From Mobula hypostoma (Eukaryota): DNA of 64,000 bases. The stretch spans positions 145,144,001-145,208,000 of the forward strand of contig NC_086097.1 in NCBI RefSeq assembly GCF_963921235.1, in the 5' to 3' direction. This document shows positions 6,530 to 54,204 of this stretch, one piece after another. The notes below the pieces were generated by a model. It saw only the letters and a list, made by a program, of their open reading frames with translations. It had not been told where the DNA came from and did not search any database. The translations under genes and the position numbers were made by a program. The stretch's first letter is position 1. Every line of letters starts with the position of its first letter.

Positions 6530-9320
6530 GTTGATGTCAAGGCCAAAAAGGTCCACAAAATTACTTTGGGGAACGGGATCAAGGAGAATCTCAAGGAATT
6601 TTATACTTACTTTAAGAAAAGGAGGGTAAATAAGGAGAGGGCATATGCACATAAGGATAAAGGGTGGAACTCGAGCTTGAAGTCAGAGCAAGTGGCTGAG
6701 GTCCTAAATGAAGACTTTGCATTGGCATTTACCAAGGAGAAAAATTTAGAAGTTAATGAATGTAGAGTGGGGCGTATAATGTACGAGGACAATTTGAGAT
6801 TAAGGAGTAGGTAGTGCTGGGTCTTTAGAAATTCATTAAGGTGGATAAGTCCTCAGGACCTGAGGGCATATATCACAGAATATTGAAAGAAGGAAATTGC
6901 TGGGACTTTGACAAAGATTCTTGTGTCCTCATTAACATAGAAACATAGAAACATAGAAACATAGAAAATAGGTGCAGGAGTAGGCCATTCGGCCCTTCGA
7001 GCCTGCACCGCCATTTATTATGATCATGGCTGATCATCCAACTCAGAACCCAGCCTTCCCTCCATACCCCCTGACCCCCGTAGCCACAAGGGCCATATCT
7101 AACTTCCTTTTAAACATAGCTAATGAACTGGCCTCAACAGTTTGCTGTGGCAGAGAATTCCACAGATTCACCACTCTCTGTGTGAAGAAGTTTTTCCTAA
7201 CCTCGGTCTTAAAAGGCTTCCCCTCTATCCTCAAACTGTGACCCCTCGTTCTAGACCTCCCCAACATCGGGAACAATCTTCCCGCATCTAGCCTGTCCAA
7301 TCCCTTTAGGATCTTATACGTTTCAATCAGATCCCCCCTCAATCTTCTAAATTCCAACGAGTACAAGCCCAGTTCATCCAGTCTTTCTTCATATGAAAGA
7401 CCTGCCATCCCAGGAATCAATCTGGTGAACCTTCTTTGTACTCCCTCTATGGCAAAGATGTCTTTCCTCAGATTAGGGGACCAAAACTGCACACAATACT
7501 CCAGGTGTGGTCTCACCAAGGCCTTGTACAACTGCAGTAGTACCTCCCTGCTCCTGTACTCGAATCCTCTCGCTATAAATGCCAGCATACCGTTCGCCTT
7601 TTTCACCGCCTGCTGTACCTGCATGCCCACTTTCAATGACTGGTGTATAATGACACCCAGGTCTCGTTGCACCTCCCCTTTTCCTAATCGGCCACCATTC
7701 AGATAATAATCTGTTTTCCTATTTTTGCCACCAAAGTGGATAACTTCACATTTATCCACATTAAATTGCATCTGCCATGAGTTTGCCCACTCACCCAACC
7801 TATCCAAGTCACCCTGCATCCTCTTAGCATCCTCCTCACTGCTAACACTGCCACCCAGCTTCGTGTCATCCGCAAACTTGGAGATGCTGCATTTAATTCC
7901 CTCATCCAAGTCATTAATATATATTGTAAACAACTGGGGTCCCAGCACTGAGCCTTGCGGTACCCCACTAGTCACCGCCTGCCATTCTGAAAAGGTCCCG
8001 TTTATTCCCACTCTTTGCTTCCTGTCTGCTAACCAATTCTCCACCCACACCAATACCTTACCCCCAATACCGTGTGCTTTAAGTTTGCACACTAATCTCC
8101 TGTGTGGGACCTTGTCAAAAGCCTTTTGAAAATCCAACTGGTGAGGTTCCAGAGGACTGGAGTGAAGCAAATGCTCTGTCTTTGTTCAAGAAAGGCATTT
8201 CTAGTCCTGTGAGCCTTACGTCAGTGGTAGCGAAGATACTGGAGAGGATTCTAAGGGATAGGATTTATGTGTATTTGGAAAGGCAAATGCTTATGGGCAG
8301 TCAGCCTTACAATCACATTTTTGAGGAAGTGACAAAGGAACTTGATAAGGGTAAGGCAGTGGACATTATCTACAGAAAATGGGCTTTAGTAAGATATTTG
8401 TTTGGTCATTCATGGTAGGCTATTTCAGGAAATAAAGATGCAGGGGATCCAGGTTGAATTGCAAGTTGGACTCAGAACTGGCTGCCATAGAAAACAGAAA
8501 ATAAGGGAAGAAGGTCGATATTCTGGCTAGAGGTATATGACCATTGGAGTTCCACAAGGGCCAATGCTGGCATCTCTGCTGCTTGTGAAATATATCAATG
8601 ATTTGGATGAAAATATAGATGGATGGATTCACAAGTCTTCAGATGACACCAAGATTGATGGAGTTGTGGACAGTGTAAAGGATTATCAAGGAATACAGTG
8701 GGCCATTAATCCATTAGACATAGGAAGCGAACTGGCAGATAAATTTTAATCCAGGAAGTTTGAAGTGTTGCACTTGGGAAGGTCATATGAAAAAAGAAAG
8801 TATATAGTTTATGTTAGACCTCTTAATAGCCTTGAGGTACAGAGGGATCTTGGGGTTCAGAGGGTGTGAATGAGGTTTACCAGGATTCTGTCCTGATTAG
8901 AGAGTATAAACTATAAGGAAAGGTTGGACAAACTTAGGTTATTGTCTCTAGAGCATTAGAGGCTGAAAGAGACTTGATAGAGGATTTTAAATTTATAAGA
9001 GGTATAGATAGAGTAGACAGTCAGAATCTTTACCTTAGGGTAGAAATGACAAATACCAGAGGACATGCTTTTAAGGTTAGTGGGAGGAAGTTTAAAAGCA
9101 ATGTGAGGACCATACTGAGAGAGTGGTAGATGTTTGGAAGTAGTCCCAGGGTGGTAGTGGATTCAGGCAGTTTGGTGGAATTGCAGTGGCTTTTAAATAG
9201 ATACATGAATATGAAAGGAATGCAGAGATGGTGCACAGGAGGAGGGGATTTTGCATACATTGGCAATAAAATTGACACAATATTGTGGGCCAAATGACCC
9301 ATTCTGCACTGTAGTGTTCT
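6530..9320 (+). mobile_element. Old CR1 ORF2 copy, interrupted by a younger CR1 at 6934-8137
   Basis: IKENLKEFYTYFK...VAEVLNEDFALAFTKE before the insert; TGEVPEDWSEAN..., GVPQGPML..., SDDTKIDG after it; many stops and frameshifts. Confidence 0.85.
6934..8137 (-). mobile_element. Young 5'-truncated CR1 (subfamily A)
   Basis: Open RT C-terminal half (LDFQKAFD, GVPQGS, FADD); (catagaaa)n tail at 6934-6967; near-identical to 39385-40588. Confidence 0.95.
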
Positions 9321-10844: not shown

Positions 10845-13800
10845 TAGGGGCAGCTGAATAACTGGACAATAACCGAGTTAGGGAACTGGAGCTGGAAGGA
10901 CTTCGGATCATTCAGGAGGCAGAGGCATTAATAGATCGGAGTTTCAGGGAGACAGTCACCCCTAAAAGTCAGGAGACAGGTAACTGGGTGACTATCAGGA
11001 GAGGGAAGGGGAATAGACAGAAAGAGCAGAGCACCCCTGTGGCCGTTCCCATCAACAATAAGTATACAGTTTTGGATACTGTTGGTGGGGACGACCAACA
11101 CGAGACACGAGACAGAGAGGGTAGGAACAGGAAGTTATGGCAGATGAATGTGTAGCTGAAGAGTTGGTGCTGGAAGCAGGGGTTCAGATTTCTGGATTGT
11201 TGGGATCTCTTCTGGGGAAGGTCTGACCTGTACAAAAAGGACGGGCTGCACCTGAACTGGAAAGGGACCAATATCCTGGCGGGCAGGTTTGCTAGAGCTG
11301 TTTGGGAGGGTTTAAACTAGTTTGGAAGGAGGGTGGGAATCAGAATGTGAGTGCAGAGATTAGGGTAGAAGGACAAGGGCATGATTCTATGTGTTCTGAG
11401 TTGGTGAGGAAGGACAGGCAGGGGACAAAACATAAATGTAGCCAGTTAGAGGGGATGAAATTTGTCTACTTCAACGCTAGGAGTATTAGGAATAAAGGGG
11501 ATGAACTTAGAGCATGGATCAGTATGTGGAACATCGATGTTGTGGCCATTACTGAAACTTGGCTGGAGGAAGGACAGGATTAGCTGATGCAGGTACCGGG
11601 GTTTAGGTGTTTTAAAAGAAATAGGATGGGAGGTAGAAAAGGGGAGGAGGGGAGGAGGGGAGTAGCATTACTGGTCAGGGATAGTATCACGGCTATAGAA
11701 AGGGTGAACGCTGTAGAGGGAGTGTCCACTGAGTCAGTGTGGGTGGAAGTCAGAAATAGGAAGGGGTTAATCACCATGCTGGGAGTAGTCTACAGGCCCC
11801 CAAATAGCCCTCGGGACACTGAGGTGCAGATAAGCAGGCAGATTTTAGAATGGTGCAGGAAAGACATGGTTGTAGTTATGGGTGATTTCAACTTCCCTCA
11901 TATTGACTGGCACCTCCTGACTGCAAGGGGAACAGATGGGGCTGAATTTGTCAGGTGTGCTCAAAAAGGATTCCTGACACAGTATGTGGACCGGCCGACG
12001 AGAGGAGAGGCCATACTGGATCTAGTTCTGGGTAATGAACCTGGTCAGATGGCAGATGTCTTGGTGAAGGAGCATTTTGGTGAGAGTGAAGAGTTAGCCC
12101 TTCCCCAGTTAAGCACTTTCCCATTTTGTCTGTTTTTATCCTTTTCCATAGCTATGCTGAAGCTAAGGGAGTTGTGGTCACTCTCACCAAAATGCTCCTC
12201 CACCAAGAGGTCTGCCACCTGACCAGGTTCATTACCCAGAACTAGATCCAGTATGGCCTAACTATGAAGGGATGAGGCAGGAACTAGCGAGAGTAAATTG
12301 GAAACAGATGCTCAAGGGTGAAAGCACAGAAGTAATGTGGAGGAAGTTTAGGGGCCACTTGTGCTGGGTTCAGGATAGGTTTGTCCCACTGAGACAAGGA
12401 AAAAATTGTAAGAAAAGGGAACGGTGGCTGATTCGTCAAGAGGAAGTAGGAAGCATATGTTAGGTATAAGAAGCGGGAAGCAGGAGGGGCTCATGAGAAA
12501 TATAGGGTAGCCAGGAAGGAGTTAGGAGAGCTCGAAGGAGGCATGAGAAGGCCTTGGCATGTAGGATTAAGGAGAACCCCAAGACATTCTATGCGTATGT
12601 GAAGAACAAAAGAATGACAAGAATGAAGATGAAGGATAAAGAAGGCAACATGTGCCTGGAGGCAGAGGAGGTTAGGGAGGTCCTAAATGAATACTTTTCT
12701 TCAGCATTCGCAAGTGAAAAGGACCTTGATCAGGGTGAGGTCGAAATAGAACAGGCCTGTGTGCTGGACAATGTGGAGATTAAGGAAGAAGACGTGTTGG
12801 ATCTTCTTAAAAACATCAAGATTGATAAGTCCCCAGGGCCAAAAGTGATATACCCCAGGTTGCTGTGGGAAGTGAGAGAAGAGATCGCTGGAGCAGTAGC
12901 TATGATCTTTGAATCCCCTTTGGCTGCAGGGGAGGTGCTGGAGGATTGGAGAATGGCAAATGTAGTTCCCTTGTTTAAAAAAGGCAATAGGAAGAATCCT
13001 GGAAACTATAGACTGGTGAGTCTTACATCAGTGGTCTGCAAACTATTGGAAAGGATTCTTAAGAATAGGATCTACGAGCACTTGGAGAAGTACTGTCTAC
13101 TCAAGGATAGTCACCATGGCTTTATGAAGGAAAGGTCATGCCTCACGAGCCTTTTTGAAGAGGTAACGAAAGAAATTGATGAGGGTAGGGCTGTAGATGT
13201 GGTCTACATGGATCTTAGCAAGGCATTTGACATGGTCCCCCACGAGAGACTCATCCAGGAAGTCATGAGGCATGGGATCAATGGAACCTTGGCTGTTTGT
13301 ATAAAAAATTGGCTTACAGGAAGAAAGCAGCGGGTAGTAGTGAACGGAAAGTATTCTGCCTGGAGGTCGGTGACTAGTGGAGTGCCGCAAGAATCTGTCC
13401 TGGGACGCCTGTTCTTTGTGATTTTTATAAATGACCTGGATGAAGAGGCGGAAGGATGGGTGAGTAAGTTTGCGGATGACACGAAGATTGGAGGAGTTGT
13501 GAATGGAGCAGTAGGTTGTCGAAGGTTACAAGAGGATATAGACAGGATGCAGAGTTGGGCAGGAAAGTGGCAGACGGAGTTCAATCTGGATAAGTGTGAG
13601 GTGATGCATTTTGGAATGACAAACCAGAAGGCTGAGTACAGTGTTAATTGTTGGCTACTTAAGAGTGTGGATGAACAGAGGGACCTTGGGGTTCAAATCC
13701 ATACATCCCTCAAGGTCGCTGCACAGGTTGATAGGATAGTTAAGAAGGCCTATGGGATGCTAGGCTTCATTAATAGGAGGATTGAGTTCAAGAGTAGAGA

Positions 13801-14392
13801 GGTCATGTTGCAACTCTACAAATCTCTGGTGAGACCACACTTCGAGTATTGTGTTCAATTCTGGTCACCTCATTATAGGAAGGATATCGAAGCTATGGAG
13901 AGGGTGCAGAGGAGACTTACCAGGATGTTGCCTGGATTGGAAAACAAGTTTAATGAGGCAAGGTTAGCAGAGCTGGGACTTTTCTCTTTAGAGCATAGAA
14001 GGATGAGAGGAGACTTGATAGAGGTCTACAAGGTTATGAGAGGCATAGATAGGGTGGATAGCCAGTACCTGTTTCCCAGGACACGAATAGCGAACACCAG
14101 AGGGCATATGTACCATGTTAAGGGAGGGAAGTTTAGGGGAGACATCAGGGGTAAGTTTTTTACACGGAGGGTTGTGGGTGCCTGGAATGACTTGCCAGGG
14201 TTGGTGGTGGAGGCTAAAACATTAGGGGTATTTAAGAGCCTCTTGGATAGGCACATGGATGAAAGAAAAATAGAAGGTTACGGGGTAGTGTGGGTTTAGT
14301 AAGCTTTTTTTTAAGGAATATATGGATCGGCACAACATTGAAGGCTGAAGGGCCTGTACTGTGCTGTAGTGTTCTAGTGTCTAGGGTCTAGT
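10845..14392 (+). mobile_element. Long CR1 LINE: ORF1 esterase remnant plus disrupted ORF2 (APE+RT), with internal inverted duplication
   Basis: ORF1 motif KKDGLHLNWKGTNILAGRF; ORF2 YFNARSIRNK, YRPP, MGDFN, DLSKAFD, FADD; stops and frameshifts; CR1 3' tail. Confidence 0.93.
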
Positions 14393-14536: not shown

Positions 14537-15617
14537 CATAGAAACACAGAAAACCTACAGCACAATACAGGACCTTCGGCCCACAAAGTTGTGCCGAACA
14601 TGTCCTTACCTTAGAAATTACTAGGCTTACCCATGGCCCTCTATTTTTCTAAGCTTCATGTACCTATCCAAAAGTCTCTTAAAAGACCCTATTGTATCCG
14701 CCTCCACCACTGTTTCCGGTAACCCATTCCACGCACTCACCACTCTCTGAGTAAAAAACTTACCCCTGACATCTCCTCTGTAGGTACTCCCAAAGCACAT
14801 TAAACCTGTGACCTCTTGTGGCAAACATTTCAGCTCTGGGAAAAAGCCTCTGACTATCTACATGATCAATGCCTGTCATCATCTTATACACCTCTATCAG
14901 GTCACCACTCATCATCCGTCGCTCCAAGGAGAAAAAGCCAAGTTCACTCAACCTGTTTTCATAAGGCATGCTCCCCAATCCAGGCAATATCCTTGTAAAT
15001 CTCCTCTGCACCTTTTCTATAGTTTTTACATCCTTCCTGTAATGAGGTGACCAGAACTGAGCGCAGTACTCTAAGTCTCTATCAGGGTCCTATATAGCTG
15101 CAACATTTCCTCTCGGCTCCTAAATTTAATCTCACGATTGATGAAGGTCAATGCACCATATGCTTTCTTAACCATTGAGTCAACTTGCGCAGTAGCTTTG
15201 ATTGCCCTATGGACTCGGATCCCAAGATCCCTCTGATCCTCCACACTGTCAAGAGTCTTACCATGAATACTAGATTCTGCCATCATATTTGACCTACCAA
15301 AATGAACCACTTCACACTTATCTGAGTTGAACACCATCTGCCACTTCTCAGCCCAGTTTTGCATCCTATCAATGTCCCGCTGTAACCTCTGATAGCCTTC
15401 CACACTATCCACAACACCTCCAACCTTTGTGTCATCAGCAAGCTTACTAACCCATCCCTCCACTTCCTCATCCAGGTCATTTATAAAAATCACAATGAGA
15501 AGGGGTCCCAGAACAGATCCCTGAGGCACACCACTGGTCACCGACCTCCATGCAGAATATGACCCATATACAGCAACTCTTTGCCTTCTGTGGGCAAACC
15601 GGTTCTGATCCACAAAG
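14537..15617 (-). mobile_element. 5'-truncated CR1 (subfamily B) with an internal deletion
   Basis: GVPQGSVLGP, LADDTKVGG, QRRFTRILPGL; same 3' UTR as 57793-58102. Confidence 0.9.
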
Positions 15618-15689
15618 ACTTTTGACTTTGATGGGATAGCAAAGTGGCTGAGGTGCAGAGGACAGAAGTAGAGCTACTAGGACTTGATG

Positions 15690-16688
15690 TTTCAATCCCT
15701 ATGGTAAGTCGGCAGTCTCAACGTTGGCAGTGGGCTTGGAGTGGTGACAAGGAGGGAGGGTAGGTACGTTATCACGATCATCAGGCGGGCACCCTCTTTC
15801 TTTGACATTTTGTTTATAAGCCCACGACGTCTCCAGAGGGCTCAACGGTGCTAGCTGGCATCCCAGATACACCCCCCTCAGTTCCATATCTTCCTGTCTT
15901 CATCTTGCAGCCCAGTTGTTGTCTTTCCTTTTAATTCAAATCAAATTGCTGCTTTATTCTGCTGCATTTGTAAAAGGACTTGATTGCTTGTTGGAGGGAG
16001 TGACCCCTCACCCCCATCTTCTTCAATAGACTGGTCATAGATGTAGCAACGAATCCCCTGCATCCCACTTCTACAAGGAAAATCTTGGTCTTCCAGCCAT
16101 TCTAGGAAGCTTCAGTTGCCATTTCAGAGTACTTGGTCTTTTTCCTCTCATAAGCTTCTTCGACACCATCTTCCCATGGTACTGTCAATTCCACAGCATA
16201 TGCCAGCTTGGCTGTTGTGGACCATAGGAGCATGTCTGACCGGAGTGTTGTAGCCACAATGTCTGGGGGAAACACAAGCATTTTTTCCGAGTCCACATCC
16301 ATTTTCCAATCCCGAGCAATCTGCAGAATGCTTACATCTTTTGATGTTATCTGCTGCTCTGGAGGTTGGCCTGCTGGTACAAATCGTGCGATGTGGACAT
16401 TTCCTGCCCATGTTTGTGGGAGAGCATTTGTGGTGATTTGCCTCTGTTCCAAGATTGATGCCAGCTGTCTGAGAACTTGGTTATGCCAAGTGTACCACCC
16501 TTGGGTGAGGCCCGTGGTGCATCCTGTTAAAATGTGCCTTAGTGATCCAGGTGCTTGACAAAGAAAGCAAGTGGGGTCTTCTCCCCATCACTGGTTCAAG
16601 TTCTGGGGTCTGGGTAGGAGGTCATAAGTGGCTCTGATGACAAAACTTAGCCGAGATCCCTCCATCTCCCAGATGTCACGCCAGCTAA
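15690..16688 (-). mobile_element. HERO-like non-LTR retrotransposon 3' fragment (CCHC plus restriction-like endonuclease)
   Basis: CFLCQAPGSLRHILTGC zinc motif, then TTLRSDMLLWS...AVELTVPWED...AYERKKTKY...VEVGCRGF (RLE motifs); left boundary approximate. Confidence 0.8.
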
Positions 16689-20883: not shown

Positions 20884-22037
20884 CAAAGAATGATGTTATG
20901 GATGAAATGGGAGGTAAGGACCTCGATAAAATCACTGTCACTACGGAGATAGTGATGAGCAAACTAGAAAGCCTGAAGGTAGATAAGTCCCCTGGTCCTG
21001 ATGGGATGCATCCCAGGGTGCTGAGGGAATTGGCGGAGGTTACAGAGAACGCATTGGTAATCATTTACCAAAACTCTCTAGACTCTGGGCAGGTCCCGGC
21101 AGAATGGAAGACAGCAAACGTCACTCCACTTTTAAAAAAGGATGTAGGCAGAAGACGGACAACTATAGGCCAGATAGCTTAACATCTGTAGTCGGAAAAA
21201 TCATTGAAGCTGTCATTAAGGAAGAAATAGCAAAACACTTAGAAAGGAGTGGTTCCATTAGACAGATGCAGCATAGATTCAGAAAGGGCAGGCCCTGTTT
21301 GACAAACTTACTGGAGTTCTTCGAGGACATAATGAGCGCTGTGGATAGAAGGGAGCAGTGGATGTCGTATACTTGGATTTCCAGAAGGCGTTCGATAAGG
21401 AGCCACACAAGAGACTTACAAATAAGATGCGGATGCATGGAGTCGGAGGAAGTGTATTAGCATGGACAGTGGATTGGTTAACCAATAGAAGGCAGAGAGT
21501 TTGTATAAATGGGTGTTTCTCCGGTTGGCAGTCGGTGGTGAGTGGGTGCTGTAGGGGTCAGTGCTGGGCCCACAGCTGTTTACCATTTACATTGATGACG
21601 TGGAAGCGGGGACTGAGTGTAGCATAGCAAAATTTGCTGATGACACTAAACTGAGTGGAAAAGCAAATTGTACAGAGGATGTGGAGAGTCTGCAGAGGGA
21701 TATAGATAGGTTAAGTGAGTGGGCCAAGGTCTGGCAGATGGAATACAGCGTTGGTAAATGCAAGATCATCCACTTTGGAAGGAATAATAGAAGAGCAGAT
21801 TATTATTTAAATGGTGAAAGATTGCAGCAGGCTGTTGTGCAGAGGGACTTGGGAGTGCTTGTTCATGAATAGCAAAAAGTTGGCTTGCAGGTACAACAGG
21901 TTATTAAGAATGTTGGCCTTCATTGCTAGAGGGACTGAATTCAAGAGCAGGGAGGTCATGCTGCAACTATACAGGGTACTGGTGGGGCTGCACCTGGAGT
22001 ATCCTGTGCAGTTCTGGTCTCCATATTTGAGGAAGGA

Positions 22038-22139
22038 CGAAGTCCTGACGAAGGGTCTCGGCCTGAAACGTCAACTGTGCTTCTTCCTATGAATGCTGCC
22101 TGGCCTGCTGTGTTGCACCAGCATTTTGTGTGTGTTGTG
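22038..22139 (+). mobile_element. 102-bp Penelope-terminus mini-element with 10-bp TSD
   Basis: TSD tgaggaagga at 22028-22037 and 22140-22149; similar to the 3' end of the Penelope-like element at 43394-43433. Confidence 0.85.
22041..22076 (+). ncRNA. Candidate minimal type I hammerhead ribozyme
   Basis: agtc CTGACGA agg gtctcgg cct GAAA cgtc aact: both core boxes, stem II agg/cct, palindromic ACGT in place of stem III, stem I with one mismatch. Confidence 0.6.
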
Positions 22140-26814: not shown

Positions 26815-27275
26815 AAATATCTTGGGCCATGTGCTCTTTATACTGCTACCACCAGGAGGTACAGAAGGCTGAAGTCCCACATCACCATGTTCAAAAACAC
26901 CTTCTTTCTCTGACTATCAAGTCCAGGAACTGTCCTGCGCAGAGTTACAAAATACACGTGGACTAAGATGTTAACTGTCCTGTGCTATCACCAGTGGGAT
27001 CATCAGATCCTGACTATCAAGTCCAGGAACTGTCCTCCACAACACTAATTCTACCTCATCAATGGAACAATGCAGGCCACCTCTTGTGCGATCATGGACC
27101 TATGGGTTATGTTGTACTAATGCCTTACCTTCTGCAGACTTTTTAAAAAAAAATCATTGTCCTGTATAAATAATGCATAATTTGTGTATAATTTATGTTT
27201 TATGTGTTGTCTGAATCTACGTGCCTGTGATGCTGCCTCACCCCAATGTGCACCTGATAATACACTGGACTTGAA
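26815..27275 (+). mobile_element. Rex1-like 3' remnant containing a 27-bp direct repeat
   Basis: ggccatgtgctcttt...ggaggtacagaaggctgaagtcccac matches the Rex1 3' ends in this window; repeat at 26910-26936 and 27010-27036. Confidence 0.6.
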
Positions 27276-28258
27276 TGCCCATGCTAAGTTCGGTGTCACT
27301 GTGGGTGCAATCAGGAAGTTGCAAAGGCACCTGAGTATATTAAGTGTCTGAAAAAAAAATGAGGATAATAGAGTTCAACGTATGGAAAGGGGATTTTAAA
27401 CCAAAGGAAGATATATTAGAGTATTTTCTAAATCTGAAAGGCTGAAAACTTTGAAAGAAAAGTGGTTTTACCAACATTTACTCAAGTAACATGAAATCAA
27501 CAGAAAAGTACAAAAATAATTTAAAATGAAATAATTCCATATATGATGGACGTTAACCTTTATTTCAGAAGGAGTGTAATGCAACAGGTAGAAAAACTCA
27601 GCACATTTGAGAGGCACATTGTCAAGCACGTAAAGTTCAGAAACCAACAAGGCTACCAACTATGGTCCAGTCATCGCATGAACACTTACATTTCTGATTG
27701 GCAGACACACAAATGTGACAAAAAGCCTGATTCCTACATTAAAATTTCTATAATTCATTGACAATTTATTTTGTACAATCCATTGGGACAGGAATGCACC
27801 TCTGGACCTCACAGGAAAAACGTTTGTTGTGTCAATTGGACCTTCCTCAACTTGTAGAAGGGCCTCCTGAAACCCCTGCATTACCTCCAGCCAGCATCCC
27901 ACCCCCTTTCTGGCCTACCACACTCCAACCCGCAATCGCTCACCTGAGTACTGCAGTCAGATCTCTCTGGTCCTTGCTTGTGGCCTTCTAGAAAACGTCC
28001 TGAGGAAGACTTATGGTCTGACCTTTTCTGTTCCCAATGACATCCTGTGAAAATTGGGGTTTGAAATCCACACTACACTCTTAGGCTCCCTGACTCCAAA
28101 TTCATCTATTAAATCTACTGTCTACTGTCTTGCCAATCTCATCATTCTCCGGCCTTCTGTGGTCAGAAACTTCTTTTGTCTTCTTCTCTACCTTTCCTTT
28201 CACTGTGCTCTTGATTCAATTTCCCACTTTAAACCCTTTCCGAGTCTGCTCTTGATTC

Positions 28259-29095
28259 TGTTACGTACCCCGTAACTGGGTTGCCAAACCAGCAGAAATG
28301 GATCACTCAGTTGGAGTCTGGAGTACTAGAACTAAGAAAGTTTTATTAAAGAAACAAGCAACACAGTAATCGAAAGGATAATAAATGCAACAGTTCAGTG
28401 ATGATAAACACACATGTGCACAGCATTAAGATAACAGCATCAATCAAGCTCTATCGTTGTCTAGGGGTAAATGACCAATTTCAAAATGACTCAAAGTTCA
28501 GTTCGCAGTAATCGTTGCCATGGCGATGGACAAGGTGGGGGAAGAGAGACAGAGAGAACAACTCATCATTCAGCACAGCTTCACTCACAGACCAGCGAGA
28601 TTGCTCACGAGCAACTTTTGGGCGGGTCCTTGGTGATGTCACCTGAGGTCACCGACTGTGACCCCTCCTCCAGATGCGGTCGATCCTCTGCAGTGAACCC
28701 GGCACCCAGGCAAGGGCGGACACACACCGGGTTCCCGCTGATCGTACCTTTCCACCCTGTGCGTTGTCCGGTACTTCTCACCACTCGTGAGAGGCGCACC
28801 GCTTCCAGGGTCTCGTTACCTCGGGTGGCGTGTGTGCCTGTCTTAGCGAACCTGTCCCTTTTTATCCCCCTGCTGGGGTATCGCCTGTCCATCACTTCAA
28901 ACAGTTCAGGATTCAAAGGGGGGAGCCGCTCCAGACAGCTCTCCCTCCCACATCCCTTCATTACACATCTCCAGACGCTGCTCCATTGTTCCTTATCTCT
29001 CCTTCCCCTGAGGGCAGGTGGCAGACCAACTGCTGATGCCACTGATGCTAGCCCAGGCCAGCAAACATCTTAATTTTATGTGTATTCTCGTAACA
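28259..29095 (-). repeat. 3' LTR (837 bp)
   Basis: Direct repeat of 32246-33080; by eye 3 substitutions and one 2-bp indel. Confidence 0.97.
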
Positions 29096-29110
29096 CTTCC
29101 CCCCTTTAAG
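29096..29110 (-). promoter_or_regulatory. Polypurine tract
   Basis: Minus strand aaaggggggaag immediately precedes the TG of the 3' LTR. Confidence 0.85.
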
Positions 29111-29267
29111 GATTTTTACCGGGAGGTAAAAATTACAAACATGACTACATTATCTGATACATACACAATATACATCTTTAACAGTTCTTTAGCCAATACA
29201 GAGAATTTGAAGCTGTCAACACCTTGACAGACAGTCATCACATTTTCTGTTCCTTTTACACGTGTTA

Positions 29268-32147
29268 TTAATAATCCCTTAGACCAGGCTCCAACTCAGC
29301 AAACTTCATAGTGGCCAAAAACACTGATGAATTGCGACCAATGTAACCTCTCATTTGGTTTTGTCCCGGACCACAACAACAAGGGTCGTCCCATTCCGAC
29401 TCAATTTTCTCTCGCAAGGGCTTAGTAGGAGGGGGACGGGTATTGACCGCAGAGTTATTGCAAAACTTCCTGCAGTACCCCACCATCTCCAAAAGCCTTC
29501 TGAGGGCCCTCTTGTCTGTCGGGGTTGGGAGGTCAGCGATAGCCTGCACTGTAGCTTGCATCACTGCCAGCTGCCCCTGTGTCACCACAATTCCCAGATA
29601 AGTGACTCTCGTGTGGCCGAATTCATTTTTTTCAAGGTTCACTATCAAACTGGCTTCAGACAGCCGTGTTAAATTGCCAATACACACCTCTGTGTTCATC
29701 AGCCCTTTAGTCACTGAATTACTCGAAAAATATGGGTGTTGTTTACTTGGCTGCCCTATTGTAACCACAATCACCCAACGTCCCAGTTCTTTGCATTTCC
29801 TCGGGACAATCAAACACATGGGTGCGAGTCGTTTAATTACTCCTTCGGGGATTAAGGGAGAGACCTTATCAGTAGACCTGGCCAAAACAATAGCCTTCTC
29901 CCATCTGACCGATCCCATCCTAATCTTTTCAAAATGGTTTTTTTCTCTTAGCAGGGGGCCCCTAGCTTCATTGATTTCCACGCTAACACCGACTAGGTTT
30001 GTTAGCATATCAAAAGCCGGTGACCGTCTCAGTTCGCGTCGGTCATGATCAATAACATTTTTCCCCCTGGGCAGCCGGTAACTCTCTTTCATGATTCCAC
30101 CAACTGTTTCCTCCAGCACCGCAAAATGTCCACCGGGGGGTACCTCGTGGGCCATGTTAAAAACCTCATCCCCATAACTCTTTTGCACCACCCCCCACTC
30201 CTCATCTGCGGATGCTGTACTTGATTTCCCTTTCTTCCTTAGCACTTCCTCATCCGCACAATAGCTTGTCAAGGCTGTGTCAGAGAGAGCGGTCTCGGCA
30301 AAAACCATCAGCCCCTCGTCTCGCTCCTGCGTCTGCACAAATTCTTTCCTGGCTACTGCTACGTCCGTCCCAGCTCCCTCACTACCTCTTATCTCACTAC
30401 ACCCTGTCTCATACAAGGTTGGCAGAAATGTTTCAGCCAAATTCACCATCGCGGGCGGGGCCTCCATGCTGGCAGGCTGACCCGTCAATCTCACGACTGG
30501 GAACACGATCCCTCCGGCGATGTCATTACCGAGCAAGACTTCCACGTCTTTCATCGGTAATTCGGACCTCACCCCGATCGTGACTAGTCCAGAGACCAGG
30601 TTGCTCTGTAAATGTATCTGGTGCAAAGGGACTGACTCTGTCCCTTCCCCAACACCTTTGACCTCTACCTCCCCAGTCTGGGTCTCTGAGCTAAACTCTA
30701 ATACACTCTTCAGTATTAGTGACTGACACGCTCCCGTGTCTCTCCAGATCCGCACTGGAACTGGTTTTAACCTCTTTTTCACTGACACCAGTCCGGCCGA
30801 GATAAACCTCTCGCGCCCTTCCTGGACTTTTTCAGACCTGTCCTTCCCTAGCGGTTCGCTGAACAGCTCAATACAGCCATTCAAAATTTCCGCTTTTCCT
30901 TTCCCCGTCTCCTTCCTTGGGGCAAAGCACCTGGACGCAAAGTGTCCGACTTTCCCACAATTATAACAGACGACCCCAGGAGACTTCCTACCAGACTGCT
31001 CCCGGTCTACCTTATCCTTTTCACTAGTCCCCGGCTTACTTTCTGACTTTTCCGGTGGACTCTCCCCGCCGTCCTGACTACCCTTCTGGTAGCCTTTACT
31101 CGGGGCAACCTTCATTTTATGCGTCAACGCATACTCATCCGCTAACTTAGCAGTTGCGGCTAACGTGGCTGCCTCTTTCTCATCGAGGTAGGGTCTCATA
31201 CCCTCAGGGACACAACCTTTAAACTGCTCAATCAGAATCAGCTGCAGCAGTCTGTCATAATCCCCCTCTACCCCTTTCGAGGCGCACCAACGCTCACAAT
31301 ATGTTTGCATCTCGCGAGCAAACTCCAAATACGTGCGGTCCCACCGCTTCCTCGCATTCCGGAACCTCTGCCGGTATGCCTCCGGGACCAACTCATAAAT
31401 CCTGAGGATGGCCTCCTTCATCACCTCATACTTCTGGGCATCTTCCGCGGAGTAAGCTTGTTGGGCTTTCCCTTTCAGTACACTCTGAAGTAAAACAACC
31501 CACTTATCCCTTGGCCAGTCCTGACTTATGGCCACTTTTTCGAAATGGAGAAAGTACCGATCCACATCGGTATCGTCAAATGGGGGAACCAGCCTAACCT
31601 CCTGGGTCGCCCGGAACCCTCCACCTTGGTTCGGCACGAGCCCCTGCTCGGCCCTTATCTTTAACTTCTCCAGCTCAAATTCCCTTTCCCTCTGTTTCTC
31701 CTCTCTCTCCAACTGTCTTTCTCTCTCTTGCCTTTCTACCTCTTTCTCTCTCTCTTGCCTTTCTACCTCTTTCTCTCTCTCCCGCCTTTCTAACTCTCTC
31801 TCTTTCTCCCGCCTTTCTAACTCTCTCTCTTTCTCCTGCCTTTCTAACTGCTTCTCTTCGTGTTCTAACTGCCGTACCCGGAACTCGTGCTCGAGTCTCA
31901 GTTTTTCAAGCTGTACCTGTACCGCGTCTCCAGCAGGTTTTTCAATAGACACCACCCCCAGCTCACCTTGGGGAAACACACCTTTAGATACATAGTGCTC
32001 TACAATAGCTCTGTGTATCTCCTCTCTCCTCATTGTCGACTTCACCTTAGCAAGATTCACCCGTTTGGCCACAGCTATCAATTCCGATTTCCTGGCATCC
32101 TCTAATGCCTCCAAGGTCGGCGCCTTTATAAATTCCTCAACCTCCAT
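29268..32147 (-). CDS. 959-aa Gag (coiled coil, SCAN-like capsid, CCHC knuckle) - aspartic protease - in-frame integrase and RT remnants
   Basis: YELVPEAYRQRFR...LILIEQFK (SCAN-like); CYNCGKVGHFASRC; WRDTGACQS; MAHEVPPGGH (start of integrase Zn domain); KQHPY and VTYLG...LRRLLEMVGYCRKFC (RT pieces). Confidence 0.9.
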   Translation of the reverse strand: MEVEEFIKAPTLEALEDARKSELIAVAKRVNLAKVKSTMRREEIHRAIVEHYVSKGVFPQGELGVVSIEKPAGDAVQVQLEKLRLEHEFRVRQLEHEEKQLERQEKERELERREKERELERREREKEVERQEREKEVERQERERQLEREEKQREREFELEKLKIRAEQGLVPNQGGGFRATQEVRLVPPFDDTDVDRYFLHFEKVAISQDWPRDKWVVLLQSVLKGKAQQAYSAEDAQKYEVMKEAILRIYELVPEAYRQRFRNARKRWDRTYLEFAREMQTYCERWCASKGVEGDYDRLLQLILIEQFKGCVPEGMRPYLDEKEAATLAATAKLADEYALTHKMKVAPSKGYQKGSQDGGESPPEKSESKPGTSEKDKVDREQSGRKSPGVVCYNCGKVGHFASRCFAPRKETGKGKAEILNGCIELFSEPLGKDRSEKVQEGRERFISAGLVSVKKRLKPVPVRIWRDTGACQSLILKSVLEFSSETQTGEVEVKGVGEGTESVPLHQIHLQSNLVSGLVTIGVRSELPMKDVEVLLGNDIAGGIVFPVVRLTGQPASMEAPPAMVNLAETFLPTLYETGCSEIRGSEGAGTDVAVARKEFVQTQERDEGLMVFAETALSDTALTSYCADEEVLRKKGKSSTASADEEWGVVQKSYGDEVFNMAHEVPPGGHFAVLEETVGGIMKESYRLPRGKNVIDHDRRELRRSPAFDMLTNLVGVSVEINEARGPLLREKNHFEKIRMGSVRWEKAIVLARSTDKVSPLIPEGVIKRLAPMCLIVPRKCKELGRWVIVVTIGQPSKQHPYFSSNSVTKGLMNTEVCIGNLTRLSEASLIVNLEKNEFGHTRVTYLGIVVTQGQLAVMQATVQAIADLPTPTDKRALRRLLEMVGYCRKFCNNSAVNTRPPPTKPLREKIESEWDDPCCCGPGQNQMRGYIGRNSSVFLATMKFAELEPGLRDY

Positions 32148-32223: not shown

Positions 32224-32241
32224 ATCCCGGACGAGCCCCCA
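32224..32241 (-). promoter_or_regulatory. Primer-binding site, tRNA-Pro
   Basis: Minus strand TGGGGGCTCGTCCGGGAT, the canonical 18-nt tRNA-Pro PBS, 4 nt after the 5' LTR. Confidence 0.93.
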
Positions 32242-32245
32242 CTTA

Positions 32246-33080
32246 TGTTACGTACCCCGTAACTGGGTTGCCAAACCAGCAGAAATGGATCACTCAGTTG
32301 GAGTCTGGAGTACTAGACCTAAGAAAGTTTTATTAAAGAAACAAGCAACACAGTAATCGAAAGGATAATAAATGCAACAGTTCAGTGATGATAAACACAC
32401 ATGTGCACAGCATTAAGATAACAGCATCAATCAAGCTCTATCGTTGTCTAGGGGTAAATGACCAATTTCAAAATGACTCAAAGTTCAGTTCGCAGTAATC
32501 GTTGCCATGGCGATGGACAAGGTGGGGGAAGAGAGACAGAGAGAACAACTCATCATTCAGCACAGCTTCACTCACAGACCAGCGAGATTGCTCACGAGCA
32601 ACTTTTGGGCGGGTCCTTGGTGATGTCACCTGAGGTCACCGACTGTGACCCCTCCTCCAGATGCGGTCGATCCTCTGCAGTGAACCCGGCACCCAGGCAA
32701 GGGCGGACACACACCGGGTTCCCGCTGATCGTACCTTTCCACCCTGTGCGTTGTCCGGTACTTCTCACCACTCGTGAGAGGCGCACCGCTTCCAGGGTCT
32801 CGTTACCTCGGGTGGCGTGTGTCTGTCTTAGCGAACCTGTCCCTTTTTATCCCCCTGCTGGGGTATCGCCTGTCCATCACTTCAAACAGTTCAGGGTTCA
32901 AAGGGGGGAGCCGCTCCAGACAGCTCTCCCTCCCACATCCCTTCATTACACATCTCCAGACGCTGCTCCATTGTTCCTTATCTCTCCTTCCCCTGAGGGT
33001 AGGTGGCAGACCAACTGCTGATGCCACTGATGCTAGCCCAGGCCAGCAAACATCTTAATTTTATGTGTATTCTCGTAACA
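32246..33080 (-). repeat. 5' LTR (835 bp)
   Basis: Direct repeat of 28259-29095, adjacent to the PBS. Confidence 0.97.
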
Positions 33081-35056
33081 ATTCTCTTAAACTCAAGTTC
33101 ATTTCTTCCCTACTTTTTACTCTCTTCTCTCCTCTCTCTGTGCTTAAGTCTTGGTTTCCTTTTCAATAAGGCCTCCTTTTTCTTTGATGCCCACTTGCCT
33201 CCCAGACTTCCAAGATCCTCTTGCAGCTTTCTTTCTCTCTTCTTTGCTACTTTCTAGTTCTAGTTCTCTTAGACTCCACAGATCTATCATAACCTTCTCC
33301 CACACATTTACATTCTCTTGTCTCTTCCTTCCTCACTTATCATCCACCTCTCCTCTCCACTCAGATGTCTCTGCTTTGGTCTTAGTTTGAGTGAAATGTG
33401 GTGATAAACCAGTATGAACAATAATTTCTTTTTCCAAGGGCAGCTTTTATTTAAACTTGTCAGCGTGAGAAGCTTTTGTACAGTTGAGTCCCCTGTTGGG
33501 AAGATATATGAGATACCAAGTGGCTGTGATTGATGAGAATTTGCAAGAGCCAAGTTACAAAAGGAGAACATCTGCCTTTCTCAACTTAATCAACCTACAA
33601 AATGTGTCAGCAAAAGGAGCTAAAATAAGAAAATAACACTAGAGTCACAATGATTCAGGGTTTCCTCACCCTGGCTACTCCTTAATCATATGCTATATAA
33701 AAAAGAAAAGTAAATTCAGACCACAACTGAGATCAGAGGCATTAAATCAAACAAATTCTATAAGATCATCACTTCTAAACTGTCTGGGCGTTTTTGTTCC
33801 CAGACTCGAGTTTTGTAAGGTAGGAAACACCAGGAGTGGAGGATAGGAAGCTAGGCCCAAGGGTTGAGTTTGGCTTGGCACTGGCTGTGCACCTCCCACG
33901 TTCTACAGATCAAAGATTTCATCTGGAAAAATTGAAAAGCATTTGGAATCACAGTGAGTGTCATCAGGAAATGATGTTCAGGCAGATTTCAAGGTTTCCT
34001 GTTTCACAGCCTTAAGAGCCGACCTTTTGGACACAGACTCACTGGGGAGAAACTTATCTTTGCATGCTGAAGTGTTGAGAAATTTGACCTTCAACACCTT
34101 TTTTTCTCACTGTTTGCACTAGCACAGAAACGGCACGATTTCTTTTCCTTATCAAAGTATTCGCTAACTATTACATCATTTACAAGGCAATTAGATAGTT
34201 GTAAGTGAAAATATAAAGGAATCTGAAGAAATTACATTATGAGTTCGTAAAATATTAAATGTTTTAAAGAGATTGGGATGGGTGAGATCAAATAATGTGG
34301 AACTTTGGTGTGTGTTGAATGCAAAAGAGATTGGCTCAGACTGGGTAAAGTATTAAAGGCTATGGAAGGGGAGATGCCAAGATGTGATTTGCTCAAATGG
34401 GATACTAAAGAAGAGGCTGGAAGGTGATGACAAAAGAGCATGGGTCTTCACCTGGAAGGCAGATGTTCATGTGCTGTTTGAGTGTTCCTTAAGGAGACAG
34501 ACCATACCTGGGTGATTGATGAGGCGTCTACTACAAAAAGTTAAAGCAGGAGGGGAACACGTTCCAATTTCCCATTTCATTGCCAATATTTCCAACTGAG
34601 TTTTTATTAAGTGGAGTGCCCCCACATTCTCTCTTTCTCAGCTGAATCATCCCACAGCTTCCAGTAATGGCTCCACTTGAGATTCATTGCTTCTAGAGCT
34701 ATGGATACACATGCAGGTTGCAACTTGATTTCTGAATTTGTGTATAATAAATGTAGGTAAACTTGCTGAAGCTTTGTGAATCATATCAGTCATGCCGAGT
34801 TCAATTTTAGAGACTATTTCGTGCTCAGTGCAATGCTGAAGCCCACGTGTCTAAGTTGGTACAAGATTGACGTCTATTTAAGCAGAGAGGTTGGAAACAT
34901 CAATGTACACTAAATTTCTAAGTGATAAGAAGAAGTCAAAATAAACTTAATGACTATTTAAATGTTGTAGAGAGGTAAAGAAAATAATGACACGAGTGGA
35001 GTGCTGGCCCTTATATGTATCTGGAGGACTAGAAAACAAGGGAGTAGAAATTCTTG

Positions 35057-39384: not shown

Positions 39385-42300
39385 AAAACATAGAAACATA
39401 GAAACATAGAAAATAGGTGCAGGAGTAGGCCATTCGGCCCTTCGAGCCTGCACCGCCATTTATTATGATCATGGCTGATCATCCAACTCAGAACCCCGCC
39501 CCAGCCTTCCCTCCATACCCCCTGACCCCCGTAGCCACAAGGGCCATATCTAACTCCCTCTTAAATATAGCCAATGAACTGGCCTCAACAGTTTCCTGTG
39601 GCAGAGAATTCCACAGATTCACCACTCTCTGTGTGAAGAAGTTTTTCCTAATCTCGGTCCTAAAAGGCTTCCCCTCTATCCTCAAACTGTGACCCCTCGT
39701 TCTGGACTTCCCCAACATCGGGAACAATCTTCCTGCATCTAGCCTGTCCAATCCCTTTAGGATCTTATACGTTTCAATCAAATCCCCCCTCAATCTTCTA
39801 AATTCCAACGAGTACAAGCCCAGTTCATCCAGTCTTTCTTCATATGAAAGTCCTGCCATCCCAGGAATCAATCTGGTGAACCTTCTTTGTACTCCCTCTA
39901 TGGCAAAGATGTCTTTCCTCAGATTAGGGGACCAAAACTGCACACAATACTCCAGGTGTGGTCTCACCAAGGCCTTGTACAACTGCAGTAGTACCTCCCT
40001 GCTCCTGTACTCGAATCCTCTCGCTATAAATGCCAGCATACCATTCGCCTTTTTCACCGCCTGCTGTACCTGCATGCCCACTTTCAATGACTGGTGTATA
40101 ATGACACCCAGGTCTCGTTGCACCTCCTCTTTTCCTAATTGGCCACCATTCAGATAATAATCTGTTTTCCTATTTTTGCCACCAAAGTGGATAACTTCAC
40201 ATTTATCCACATTAAATTGCATCTGCCATGAATTTGCCCACTCACCCAACCTATCCAAGTCACCCTGCATCCTCTTAGCATCCTCCTCACTGCTAACACT
40301 GCCACCCAGCTTCGTGTCATCCGCAAACTTGGAGATGCTGCATTTAATTCCCTCATCCAAGTCATTAATATATATTGTAAACAACTGGGGTCCCAGCACT
40401 GAGCCTTGCAGTACCCCACTAGTCACCGCCTGCCATTCTGAAAAGGTCCCGTTTATTCCCACTCTTTGCTTCCTGTCTGCTAACCAATTCTCCACCCACA
40501 CCAATACCTTACCCCCAATACCGTGTGCTTTAAGTTTGCACACTAATCTCCTGTGTGGGACCTTGTCAAAAGCCTTTTGAAAATCCAAATATACCACATC
40601 CACTGGTTCTCCCCTATCCACTCTACTAGTTACATCCTCAAAAAATTCTATGAGATTCGTCAGACATGATTTTCCTTTCACAAATCCATGCTGACTTTGT
40701 CCGATCATTTCATCGCTTTCCAAATGTGCTGTTATCACATCCTTGATAACTGACTCCAGCAGTTTCCCCACCACCGACGTTAGGCTAACCGGTCTATAAT
40801 TCCCCGGTTTCTCTCTCCCTCCTTTTTTAAAAAGTGGGGTTACATTAGCCACCCTCCAATCCTCAGGAACTAGTCCAGAATCTAACAAGTTTTGAAAAAT
40901 TATCACTAATGCATCCACTATTTCTTGGGCTACTTCCTTAAGCACTCTAGGATGCAGACCATCTGGCCCTGGGGATTTATCTGCCTTTAATCCCTTCAAT
41001 TTACCTAACACCACTTCCCTACTAACATGTATTTCGCTCAGTTCCTCCATCTCACTGGACCCTCTGTCCCTTACTATTTCTGGAAGATTATTTATGTCCT
41101 CCTTAGTGAAGACAGAACCAAAGTAATTATTCAATTGGTCTGCCATGTCCTTGCTCCCCATAATCAATTCACCTGTTTCTGTCTGCAGGGGACCTACATT
41201 TGTCTTTACCAGTCTTTTCCTTTTTACATATCTATAAAAGCTTTTACAGTCCGTTTTTATGTTCCCTGCCAGTTTTCTCTCATAATCTTTTTTCCCCTTC
41301 CTAATTAAGCCCTTTGTCCTCCTCTGCTGAACTCTGAATTTCTCCCAGTCCTCAGGTGAGCCACTTTCTCTGTCTAATTTGTATGCTTCTTCTTTGGAAT
41401 TGATACTATCCCTAATTTCTCTTGTCAGCCACGGGTGCACTACCTTCCTTGATTTATTCTTTTGCCAAACTGGGATGAACAATTGTTGTAGTTCATCCAT
41501 GCAACCTCTAAATGCTTGCCATTGCATATCCACCGTCAATCCTTTAAGTGTCATTTGCCAGTCTATCTTAGCTAATTCACGTCTCATACCTTCAAAGTTA
41601 CCCCTCTTTAAGTTCAGAACCTTTGTTTCTGAATTAACTATGTCACTCTCCATCTTAATGAAGAATTCCACCATATTATGGTCACTCTTACCCAAGGGGC
41701 CTCTCACGACAAGATTGCTAATTAACCCTTCCTCATTGCTCAAAACCCAGTCCAGAATAGCCTGCTCTCTAGTTGGTTCCTCGACATGTTGGTTCAAAAA
41801 ACCATCCCGCATACATTCCAAGAAATCCTCTTCCTCAGCACCTTTACCAATTTGGTTCACCCAGTCTACATGTAGATTGAAGTCACCCATTATAACTGCT
41901 GTTCCTTTATTGCACACATTTCTAATTTCCTGTTTAATACCATCTCCGACCTCACTACTACTGTTAGGTGGCCTGTACACAACTCCCACCAGCATCTTCT
42001 GCCCCTTAGTGTTACGCAGCTCTACCCATATCGATTCCACATCTTCCTGGCTTATGTCTTTCCTTTCTATTGCGTTAATCTCTTCTTTAACCAGCAACGC
42101 CACCCCACCTCCCCTTCCTTCATGTCTATCCCTCCTGAATATTGAATATCCCTGAACGTTGAGCTCCCATCCCTGGTCACCCTGGAGCCATGTCTCTGTG
42201 ATCCCAACTATATCATAATCATTAATAACAATCTGCACTTTCAATTCATCCACCTTATTACGAATGCTCCTTGCATTGACACATAAAGCCTTCAGGCGCT

Positions 42301-42470
42301 CTTTTACAACTCTCATAGCCCTTATACAATTATGTTGAAAAGTGGCCCTTTTTAATGCTTGTCCTGGATTTGTCGGCCTGCCACTTTTACTTTTCTCCTT
42401 TGTACTTTTTGCATCTACCCTCACTTTACACCCCTCTGTCTCTCTGCACTGGTTCCCATCCCTCTGTTGT
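39385..42470 (-). mobile_element. Young CR1 (subfamily A), truncated just upstream of ORF2
   Basis: (catagaaa)n tail; uninterrupted APE+RT frame. Confidence 0.96.
39488..42320 (-). CDS. CR1 ORF2 (APE endonuclease plus reverse transcriptase), open frame; true start uncertain
   Basis: CVNARSIRNK, ITETWL, YRPP, MGDFN, SDH, LDFQKAFD, FADD; no stops; GVPQG is GVLQG in this copy. Confidence 0.88.
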
Positions 42471-43433
42471 GATGCTGCCTTCACCCACATCTCCTCCATT
42501 TCCCAGACATCCATGCTCACACCATCTTCCCAGCATGTTAATAGGGTACGAGTTCCTCCTGTCCTCACCTACAACCCCATATGCATTCAGAAGATCATTC
42601 TTTGCAACCTCTGCCATCTACAATGAGCTCCTACCACCAAACACATCTTTACCTACCCCCCCCCCACACTACTCTCTGCTTTCCACAGGGATGACTCCCT
42701 CTGTGATTCCCTTGTGCATTCATCCCTCCCCACTAATTTCCCTCCTGGCACATATCCCTGTAAGTGACAGAAATCGTACACCTGCACATTTACCCCCCTC
42801 CCTTACTTCCATTCAGAGCCCCAAACAGTCCTTCCAGGTGAGGCAACAATTCACCTGCAAATATGCTGGGGAGGTCCATTATATCCGGTGCTCCTGATGC
42901 AGCTTCCTCTACATTGGTGAGACCCAATGTAAATTGTGGGACTGCTTTGTCCAGCACCTATGCTCCATCTGCCAAAAGCGAAATTTCTCATTTTAATTCC
43001 TATCCCCATTCCCGTTCCAACAGGTTGATCCATGGCCTTCTCTTTTGCCACAATGAAGCCGCTCTCAGAGTAGAGGAGCAGCAACTCATATTTTGTTTAG
43101 GTAGCCTCAAACCTGATGGCATGAACATCGATTTCTCCTTCTGGTATTTCTTCTTCCCTTGTCTTCTTCCCCACTCTGGCGCCACTCTTAACTCTTCACC
43201 TCCTCACATCTCCCCCCTGGTGCCCATCCTTCTTCCCTTTCTCCCATGGTCTACTCTCCTTTCCAGTCAGATTCCTTCTTTTCAACCTTTTATCCTTTCC
43301 AACCCACCTAGATTCAGCTAACCGCCTTCTAGCTAGTCCTCCTTCTCCTCCCCTCCCCACTTTTTTATTCTGGAACCTTCCTCCTTCCTGGCTAATCCTG
43401 AAGGAGGATCTCAGCCCAAAACGTCCACTGTTT

Positions 43434-53657: not shown

Positions 53658-54204
53658 ATTCAGTTTCTGTTTTTGAACACTATCAATGAAGACCGCTACC
53701 CTTCATTTCTTTCCTTCACTTCCTCTGTCCTCTGTCCATCCAGAAGTATTTAATGCTCAGTCCTGTCTGAGCCGTGTTTCTGCTATCACTGTGATATCAT
53801 ATTTCCATGTAATTATTTGTGCCTGCAGTTCACCAACATTATTTACCACATATTCTACATTCATTTACATGTACAGTAAAATAAATTAATTGTCCTTTCA
53901 TTTCTATTTTCATTGATGCTGACCAAATCCAGTGCGAATTGTGAAACCCCTTTTCTTTCCAGGTGTCTCAGGAAATGGCACGTTGGCCCTCACTGGCAGT
54001 CTCCCAACTCAGTGCCAAGGAACACACATTCTCTGGCCTCGTGGGTCTAGGGTATATACACTCCAGTCCCGCCAAGTCCGTGAGATTGGGATGACTCGCC
54101 CAGCCAAGCCCCTGTCTGTGTGAAAGCTGTCTGATTTGCTGCTTGTTACAGCTCATCACAGAAAATAACAGATCACACACTGCATACAATTAAAAGAGGT
54201 ATAA

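Follow-up and report, generated by a model that had tools for sequence, protein, structure and literature searches.

A stretch of 64,000 nucleotides (nt) from the ray Mobula hypostoma (contig NC_086097.1, positions 145,144,001 to 145,208,000; hereafter the window) carries a retroelement which raises the question of why a polymerase gene that has lost its enzymes should still be kept readable. An open reading frame (ORF) of 959 amino acids (aa) runs on the minus strand from 32147 to 29268 without an internal stop, as an earlier note made from the sequence had said, and codes for a Gag protein with a SCAN-like domain and for a protease, followed by a tail of pol remnants. It is enclosed in a complete Gmr1-like long terminal repeat (LTR) element of 4,822 bp, the parts of which are listed in Table 1. 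We consider it probable that this is a recent copy of a long-lived non-autonomous Gmr1-like lineage of Mobula, which supplies its own Gag and protease, borrows reverse transcriptase (RT) and integrase, and has been selected for translation of its tail.

The tail was compared with the full-length element P0274 of the sawfish Pristis pectinata, using the less-deleted M. birostris relative P0126 as an intermediate. After the protease there are 391 aa in this ORF compared to 954 aa in P0274, and the loss of about 560 aa is made up of three large in-frame deletions plus small ones. Deletion 1 (~288 aa vs P0274) leads from the integrase zinc finger to the C-terminal end of integrase and removes the whole core, deletion 2 (~126 aa) starts at HPYRM, reaches mid-palm and so takes out the first half of the RT palm, and deletion 3 (~87 aa) starts where the thumb ends and takes out most of RNase H; homology is in frame on both sides of each, in keeping with the large frame-preserving deletions that the earlier note had proposed. 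The segment between deletions 1 and 2 is identical to P0126 at 61/118 positions. The remnants themselves have decayed, the integrase zinc finger retaining both histidines and lacking both cysteines, and the palm having an 18-aa deletion and CIGN in place of YxDD, a motif which decays stepwise over the relatives (YIDD, YIGD, CIGD, CIGN). At E up to 10, a Pfam search of the ORF gave no match to rve, to RVT_1 or to any RNase H family, and the same search on the full-length relative P0013 matched all three, so that the predicted absence of complete domains was borne out. Two further statements stood in part, namely that the deletions had occurred with neither stop nor frameshift and that the RNase H end lay past the stop: there is indeed no stop, but one RNase H piece (aa 924-948) is inside the ORF, and because the closing motifs LLxWSL, KGxxNV and DCLSRC, as in P0274, sit in two other frames at about 29302-29216 (hand-counted positions), the final 11 residues of the ORF are translated out of the original frame. 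A first map of the tail, in which aa 691-800 had been aligned to distant full-length elements as many tiny integrase pieces, was withdrawn because the local matches were mostly not above shuffles and P0126 gave three large deletions. With neither the integrase core, the RT YxDD nor RNase H intact, the element, as judged from its sequence, cannot copy itself.

The SCAN-Gag and protease look intact, as had been claimed. SCAN and zf-CCHC were matched by Pfam, the protease has its motifs RDTGA (30743-30729) and LLGND, and a structure model of aa 170-560 (mean predicted local distance difference test score 78.6, from 56 aligned sequences) consists of two helical regions and one beta domain, the best structural matches being retroviral proteases; the fold search with this model gave proteases and protease-like domains only, with no capsid among the matches listed. 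In the helical domain ahead of SCAN this copy is without 3 residues (SAL) present in 9/9 aligned relatives. The element has paired LTRs with TG...CA ends, a 4-bp target duplication, a primer binding site and a polypurine tract, and its pol remnants are collinear with those of P0274 and P0013 in the order integrase, RT, RNase H, confirming the proposed placing of integrase before RT. In published accounts, Gmr1-like elements have the protease and integrase before RT and RNase H (bioRxiv 10.1101/2025.03.03.638093) and SCAN is common, occurring in over half of frog Gmr elements (PMC4131045). The best matches to the RT piece were mostly SCAN-bearing polyproteins. On its structure, SCAN capsid and domain order, and not on an RT tree, the element is classed as a Gmr1-like derivative.

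The deletions are shared well beyond this copy, and involve many proteins and two named species. The closest proteins are RefSeq models of M. hypostoma, 97% identical, and a total of 29 related RefSeq proteins were found in M. hypostoma and M. birostris (leaving out the more distant P0012 and P0130), with family identity ranging from 52 to 97%. Eleven of the 29 end at the stop of the window ORF (10 from M. hypostoma, on contigs of 9 different lengths, and 1 from M. birostris), and 5 are uninterrupted over the full length of the ORF. Contigs of three organisms span all element bins examined, and a contig of organism B bridges deletion 2 gap-free, this being the only deletion bridged by a listed contig under a 31-letter rule; for deletions 1 and 3 in the second species the evidence is from proteins (P0123, P0125 and P0126 for deletion 1, P0123 for deletion 3). 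As the deletions are shared by proteins of two species, and deletion 2 also by the contig of organism B, they predate a species split. Midpoint-rooted trees were built for the tail (17 rows) and for the Gag end plus protease (28 rows); both are ladder-shaped with the least-deleted forms basal and the window copy in the youngest cluster, several young forks lacking support. Summed contig depth over the element is about four orders above that of the flank, though it is not a copy number. Protein and contig sequences together thus confirm a multi-copy family, and not one decayed copy.

The insertion in the window is also young. The two LTRs are near-identical, as noted before, with 3 substitutions and one 2-nt indel between them, and their divergence is 0.36%. 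The flank has diverged by 2.6% between organisms A and B, which puts the age of the insertion at about 0.14x that of the A-B split (Poisson range 0.03-0.40). A contig of run X1 continues from the flank into the LTR with full identity; the flank contig of run X9 (organism B) differs at 20/762 letters and its fit ends at 28263. This is where the break of an empty site is expected, since 4 of the first 5 letters of the far flank agree with the LTR end. By this one contig the insertion appears to be absent from the same site in the related organism B. An insertion younger than the A-B split implies that the deleted form was still being copied after it, and hence that RT and integrase were needed from another element. 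The proposal of a non-autonomous lineage still being copied, with constraint on Gag and protease, is upheld by the many copies, the young insertion and the slower change of the Gag-protease part: an open Gag-protease frame without working RT or integrase has been amplified in its deleted form and has inserted recently.

Differences from the window ORF are fewer in Gag-protease than in the tail for P0004 (8/402 vs 22/282, p 0.0004), P0005 (20/402 vs 32/284, p 0.003) and P0127 (p 0.04), and the tail, which evolves 2 to 4x faster than Gag-protease, is still open. Between aa 691 and 827 the frame has 0 stops where the two remaining sense frames have 13 and 14, and only 3/20,000 base shuffles of this region were open. 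The open tail is more than chance. Some 12 nested length changes, 3 large and 9 small (10, 9, 7, 4, 5, +1, 7, 6 and 18 aa), lead to this copy with in-frame homology on both sides of each, and the chance of all being in frame, for 10 or 13 events, is 1.7e-5 or 6e-7 if one event in three keeps frame by chance, and 1e-3 or 1.2e-4 if one in two does. In a neutral simulation (1,000 runs) the tail was stop-free in 3.7% at 78% protein identity, the distance of P0122, and in 0.1% at 55%, the distance of P0126. The 12 best supported among 34 small indels at the DNA level comprise 8 in the 837-bp LTR, all of lengths not divisible by 3, and 4 in 2.4 kb of ORF, namely a loss of 3 nt, a +1 and a -1 separated by 4 nt, and a +1 near the C-terminus.

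These observations can be brought together in a three-step scheme. The LTR transcript would be translated into a Gag-protease-tail protein and a particle built and matured around its own RNA, and RT, RNase H and integrase would be provided in trans by an intact LTR element that is co-expressed in the germ-line cell; these two steps we regard as very likely. Thirdly, the tail would have no enzyme role and yet would have to stay readable almost to its 3' end, so that only frame-keeping deletions survived in the source lineage. The likeliest cause would be a cis effect on the RNA, by avoidance of message decay or by the translation-coupled packaging reported for mouse IAP 1-delta-1, and for an RNA-level cause the chances seem to us about even. 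From the ORF stop to the poly(A) site (the AATAAA of the LTR) is ~0.9 kb, a distance that would grow to 2.1 kb with a stop just past the protease, and messages with long 3' untranslated regions can undergo decay. That the tail has been shortened repeatedly without loss of frame suggests that translation through most of it helps copying.

Several points weigh against selection on the tail and against a partner in trans. Thirteen of the 29 relatives stop within the tail, for the most part at separate positions, and the earlier note's expectation that sibling remnants would not have frequent stops fared unevenly; a further 5 end at or before the protease end and 14 start at an internal methionine. 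The relatives are gene models, some of them chimeric with host genes, in which breaks in the DNA are not directly visible. P0004 and P0005, on different contigs, lose frame at one shared position in the thumb, and P0006 and P0127 both lose it near aa 737; as these pairs leave the frame at shared places, shortened-tail forms may also have been copied. A frameshifted sister lineage would be invisible, since protein searches detect open frames only, and the deletion mechanism may itself favour frame, since the junctions of deletions 1 and 2 lie on repeated dipeptides (RR and RM). The Gag-protease contrast was not significant for P0128 (p 0.06) or for the five youngest full-length relatives (Gag 22/402 vs tail 34/391 columns, p 0.10). 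No intact Mobula pol was found in the protein searches, one of which listed 150 proteins with three of them looked up, and repeat-masked annotation weakens this result; the nearest relative with a whole integrase zinc finger was P0012 from M. birostris, a fragment of 61% identity.

Much of this would be accounted for if the family were non-autonomous as proposed but its open tail unselected, the deletions having arisen by template switching at in-phase microhomologies in a source that turned over quickly, with protein databases showing only the open survivors. The dipeptide repeats at two of the large junctions, the relatives ending in the tail (two pairs of them at the same place) and the faster change of the tail are all as this explanation would have them. 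Microhomology leaves unexplained, however, a tail that is stop-free over 22 to 45% protein divergence, where few simulated tails stayed open; some 12 in-frame events are improbable even at one in two, and non-triplet indels, among the 12 best supported, are frequent in the LTR and rare in the ORF. We judge an unselected tail to be unlikely.

The main alternative cause for the open tail, because the thumb is more conserved than the rest, is that it works as a protein, the RT thumb or the integrase remnant docking the Pol polyprotein of the partner into particles or poisoning the enzymes of the partner. The thumb (aa 828-900) differs from that of P0122 at 9/73 positions, compared to 49/198 for the rest of the tail (p 0.03), with similar results for P0123 and P0124 (p 0.02-0.03 over the three comparisons) which are not independent of P0122, and it is identical at 44/73 positions to that of a distant full-length element. 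Against this, the contrast for P0126 gave p 0.07, P0004 and P0005 lose most of the thumb at their shared exit, the zinc-finger cysteines and YxDD have decayed stepwise, and the tail of a stingray lineage described below is unrelated. We consider a role as protein unlikely.

It is more doubtful still that the host keeps the Gag, with the ray profiting from Gag-protease in development or in restricting the intact element, and with the family heading to domestication, and we consider this very improbable. Gag-protease is constrained, many copies have RefSeq gene models with several isoforms, run X7 covers the element and not its flank (no listed source is recorded as RNA and the RNA label of X7 is a guess, so expression is not claimed), and young Gag-only Bik-1 copies serve zebrafish development (PMC12067270). 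The ladder-shaped trees and the young insertion point instead to selection during transposition and not at fixed loci, no orthologous single locus was seen and the site appears empty in organism B, and 24/29 annotated copies are incomplete. The suggestion of an intermediate towards SCAN-Gag domestication was not supported: the element is mobile and multi-copy, with near-identical LTRs and a target duplication, where a domesticated gene would be a single immobile locus fixed across species, and the capture of SCAN domains by hosts is reported as a single event, in one amniote gene clade, where they are mostly fused to zinc-finger arrays (bioRxiv 10.1101/2025.03.03.638093). The SCAN domain (PF02023) of those host zinc-finger genes is of the same origin. 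Finally, a single decayed copy or an assembly artefact, for which we found no evidence in favour, has a vanishingly small chance of being correct, given identical deletions and stop in many proteins of two species and coverage of all element bins examined by contigs of three organisms.

The non-autonomous lineage that we favour can be set beside known systems. It shares with the full-length Gmr1-like Ty3/gypsy elements P0274 and P0013 a SCAN capsid, CCHC knuckle, protease and integrase before RT and RNase H in one ORF, and differs from them in lacking the integrase core, the RT active site and the RNase H core. In mouse IAP 1-delta-1 elements the product of a deleted ORF is reported to help retrotransposition in cis while the enzymes are provided in trans (PMC6466679, PMC7411935). 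These are likewise non-autonomous, with a large internal deletion (1.9 kb there, ~1.7 kb here) and one open frame left, but they are class II endogenous retroviruses with one deletion into gag and pol and still need Gag in trans, whereas the ray element keeps its whole Gag and protease and its tail has been trimmed in ~12 steps across a species split. The ray element would thus work like IAP 1-delta-1 and is not a member of it, as its SCAN-Gag appears whole and its domain order is that of Gmr1. Long-lived non-autonomous derivatives that retain Gag are also known from plants: wheat RLG_Quinta, with a domain of unknown function after Gag, has been proposed to supply Gag to RLG_Cereba (PMC11302176), and TR-GAG and the sugar beet GAG/PROT elements are further such families (PMC13570524). 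Quinta differs in having no RT or integrase sequence and in having an identified partner, and the beet GAG/PROT elements in having patchy, decayed pol remnants, with no kept frame described in the excerpts (PMC13570524). Among vertebrates, the zebrafish BHIKHARI elements (Bik-1, Bik-2) are young, multi-copy and LTR-flanked, with a long Gag ORF that has an N-terminal coiled coil, no pol and, as here, no identified partner; they differ in being relatives of Lokiretrovirus, in having a reported host role and in that the excerpts mention no protease or pol remnant (PMC12067270). The ray element is not a member of any of these (IAP 1-delta-1, Quinta, TR-GAG, beet GAG/PROT or BHIKHARI). Gag-keeping freeloaders are already known. 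What is new is the Gmr1 setting and the record of a dead tail being trimmed in frame, rung by rung, through a species split, and stingrays may offer an independent parallel. The titles and abstract openings listed in literature searches, which did not extend to repeat libraries such as Repbase and Dfam, included no account of this family or of any non-autonomous Gmr1 element from rays.

Among the protein sequences of two stingrays, Hemitrygon akajei and Hypanus sabinus, P0020, P0023, P0354, P0015 and P0022 carry SCAN-Gag-protease and, after it, an open tail that contains no pol domain and measures 350-375 aa in the longest of them; P0020, P0023 and P0354 are 64-72% identical there. This tail is unrelated to that of Mobula and resembles a decayed second copy of SCAN, knuckle and protease. 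Three of the stingray proteins form a separate clade, and the Gag-protease of P0015 groups with the integrase-bearing P0011 while its tail is of the stingray type, a mix which hints at recombination. An unrelated tail that is also open is a lead favouring tail length over tail content. It is conceivable, but rather a long shot, that myliobatiform rays have twice evolved Gag-protease-only Gmr1 lineages which translate ~350-400 codons past the protease whatever these encode, and that the Mobula lineage has outlived its intact ancestor and draws RT and integrase from a distant LTR family while using a capsid and protease of its own, with the thumb possibly a docking piece.

Table 1. Parts of the Mobula hypostoma element, given in its own 5' to 3' order with positions in the window
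Feature	Positions	Strand	Basis or remark
Target site duplication, upstream copy	33081..33084	.	GAAT on - strand
5' LTR, 835 bp, TGTTAC...GTAACA	32246..33080	-	
Primer binding site, 18 nt, starts 4 nt past LTR	32224..32241	-	
Single ORF, 959 aa, Gag-protease + dead pol tail	29268..32147	-	
Gag N-terminus + E/R-rich coiled-coil repeat (27-nt unit), length differs between copies	31640..32147	-	
Helical domain ahead of SCAN, presumed capsid N-terminal domain	31386..31625	-	
SCAN domain (capsid C-terminal domain), aa 255-344	31116..31385	-	Pfam PF02023, E 1.4e-12, above curated cut-off
CCHC zinc knuckle (zf-CCHC, aa 393-407)	30927..30968	-	Pfam
Aspartic protease, DTG + LLGND motifs, retropepsin fold	30468..30815	-	Motifs + structure model
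Spacer + integrase zinc-finger remnant, up to large deletion 1	30036..30443	-	
Integrase end, spacer, RT N-terminus through KQHPY, up to large deletion 2	29721..30035	-	P0126 intermediate, E 7.6e-12
Second half of RT palm + thumb, up to large deletion 3	29379..29720	-	
RNase H fragment (aa 924-948), then 11 residues in shifted frame to family-shared stop	29271..29378	-	
End of old RNase H coding region, split over two other frames	29216..29302	-	Three-frame translation, by-eye comparison with P0274
Polypurine tract	29096..29112	-	
3' LTR, 837 bp, TGTTAC...GTAACA; one AATAAA at 28347	28259..29095	-	
Target site duplication, downstream copy	28255..28258	.	

The primer binding site matches what we take to be a tRNA-Pro type, and the 98-nt stretch between the 5' LTR and the ORF start is without an ATG. 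In run X1 the summed contig depth of the LTR (28259-29095) is ~3 to 5x that of the internal part, which would fit many solo LTRs, although depth is no copy number. The copy number of the 27-nt E/R-rich repeat in Gag (31658-31880) is very variable among family members, always in frame among the proteins seen, with full-length proteins of 939 to 1,004 aa, and RefSeq labels some of the repeat-bearing proteins 'trichohyalin-like'. The family proteins P0002, P0010, P0115 and P0120 are named as isoform X1 of the host genes MACC1, PISD, UBE2G2 and PPM1Lb, and insertions within those genes have probably been absorbed into the gene models; in Hypanus, P0072 joins a related Gag to a mucin-like gene model.

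Elsewhere in the window, a 1,026-aa open frame at 39491-42568 on the minus strand reads by eye like the endonuclease-RT ORF of a long interspersed nuclear element (LINE), and a 3' copy of it of ~1.2 kb (6941-8185, minus strand) is 98% identical, indicating a young LINE family. Older LINE-like copies lie on both strands at 11444-14376, 14544-15673, 20976-22038, 54194-57077 and 59168-60413, with a mutual identity of 64-74%. A 161-aa open stretch at 16105-16587 (minus strand) with CxxC and WYTWHNQVL resembles by eye the end of another non-LTR retroelement ORF, and the flank of the element has a 32-nt direct repeat (26910-26941 and 27010-27041, 100 nt apart, 94% identical).

For annotation, the family carries a warning, as its copies are found in RefSeq as host genes or isoforms (MACC1, PPM1Lb and UBE2G2 isoform X1). 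If the Mobula lineage does draw its enzymes from a distant LTR family, the two families would share the labour between them in a stable way within a vertebrate genome. The cis preference of LTR elements is unsettled, the evidence being less clear-cut than for LINEs according to a 2026 model paper (PMC13558583), and the only close experimental precedent that we found is IAP 1-delta-1. The Mobula family, in which the enzymes are gone and the amino acids of the tail drift while the frame is kept, is a natural long-run test of such cis preference, and as its successive subfamilies extend across at least 2 species, their pattern of indels and stops can separate an RNA-level need from a protein role and from chance.

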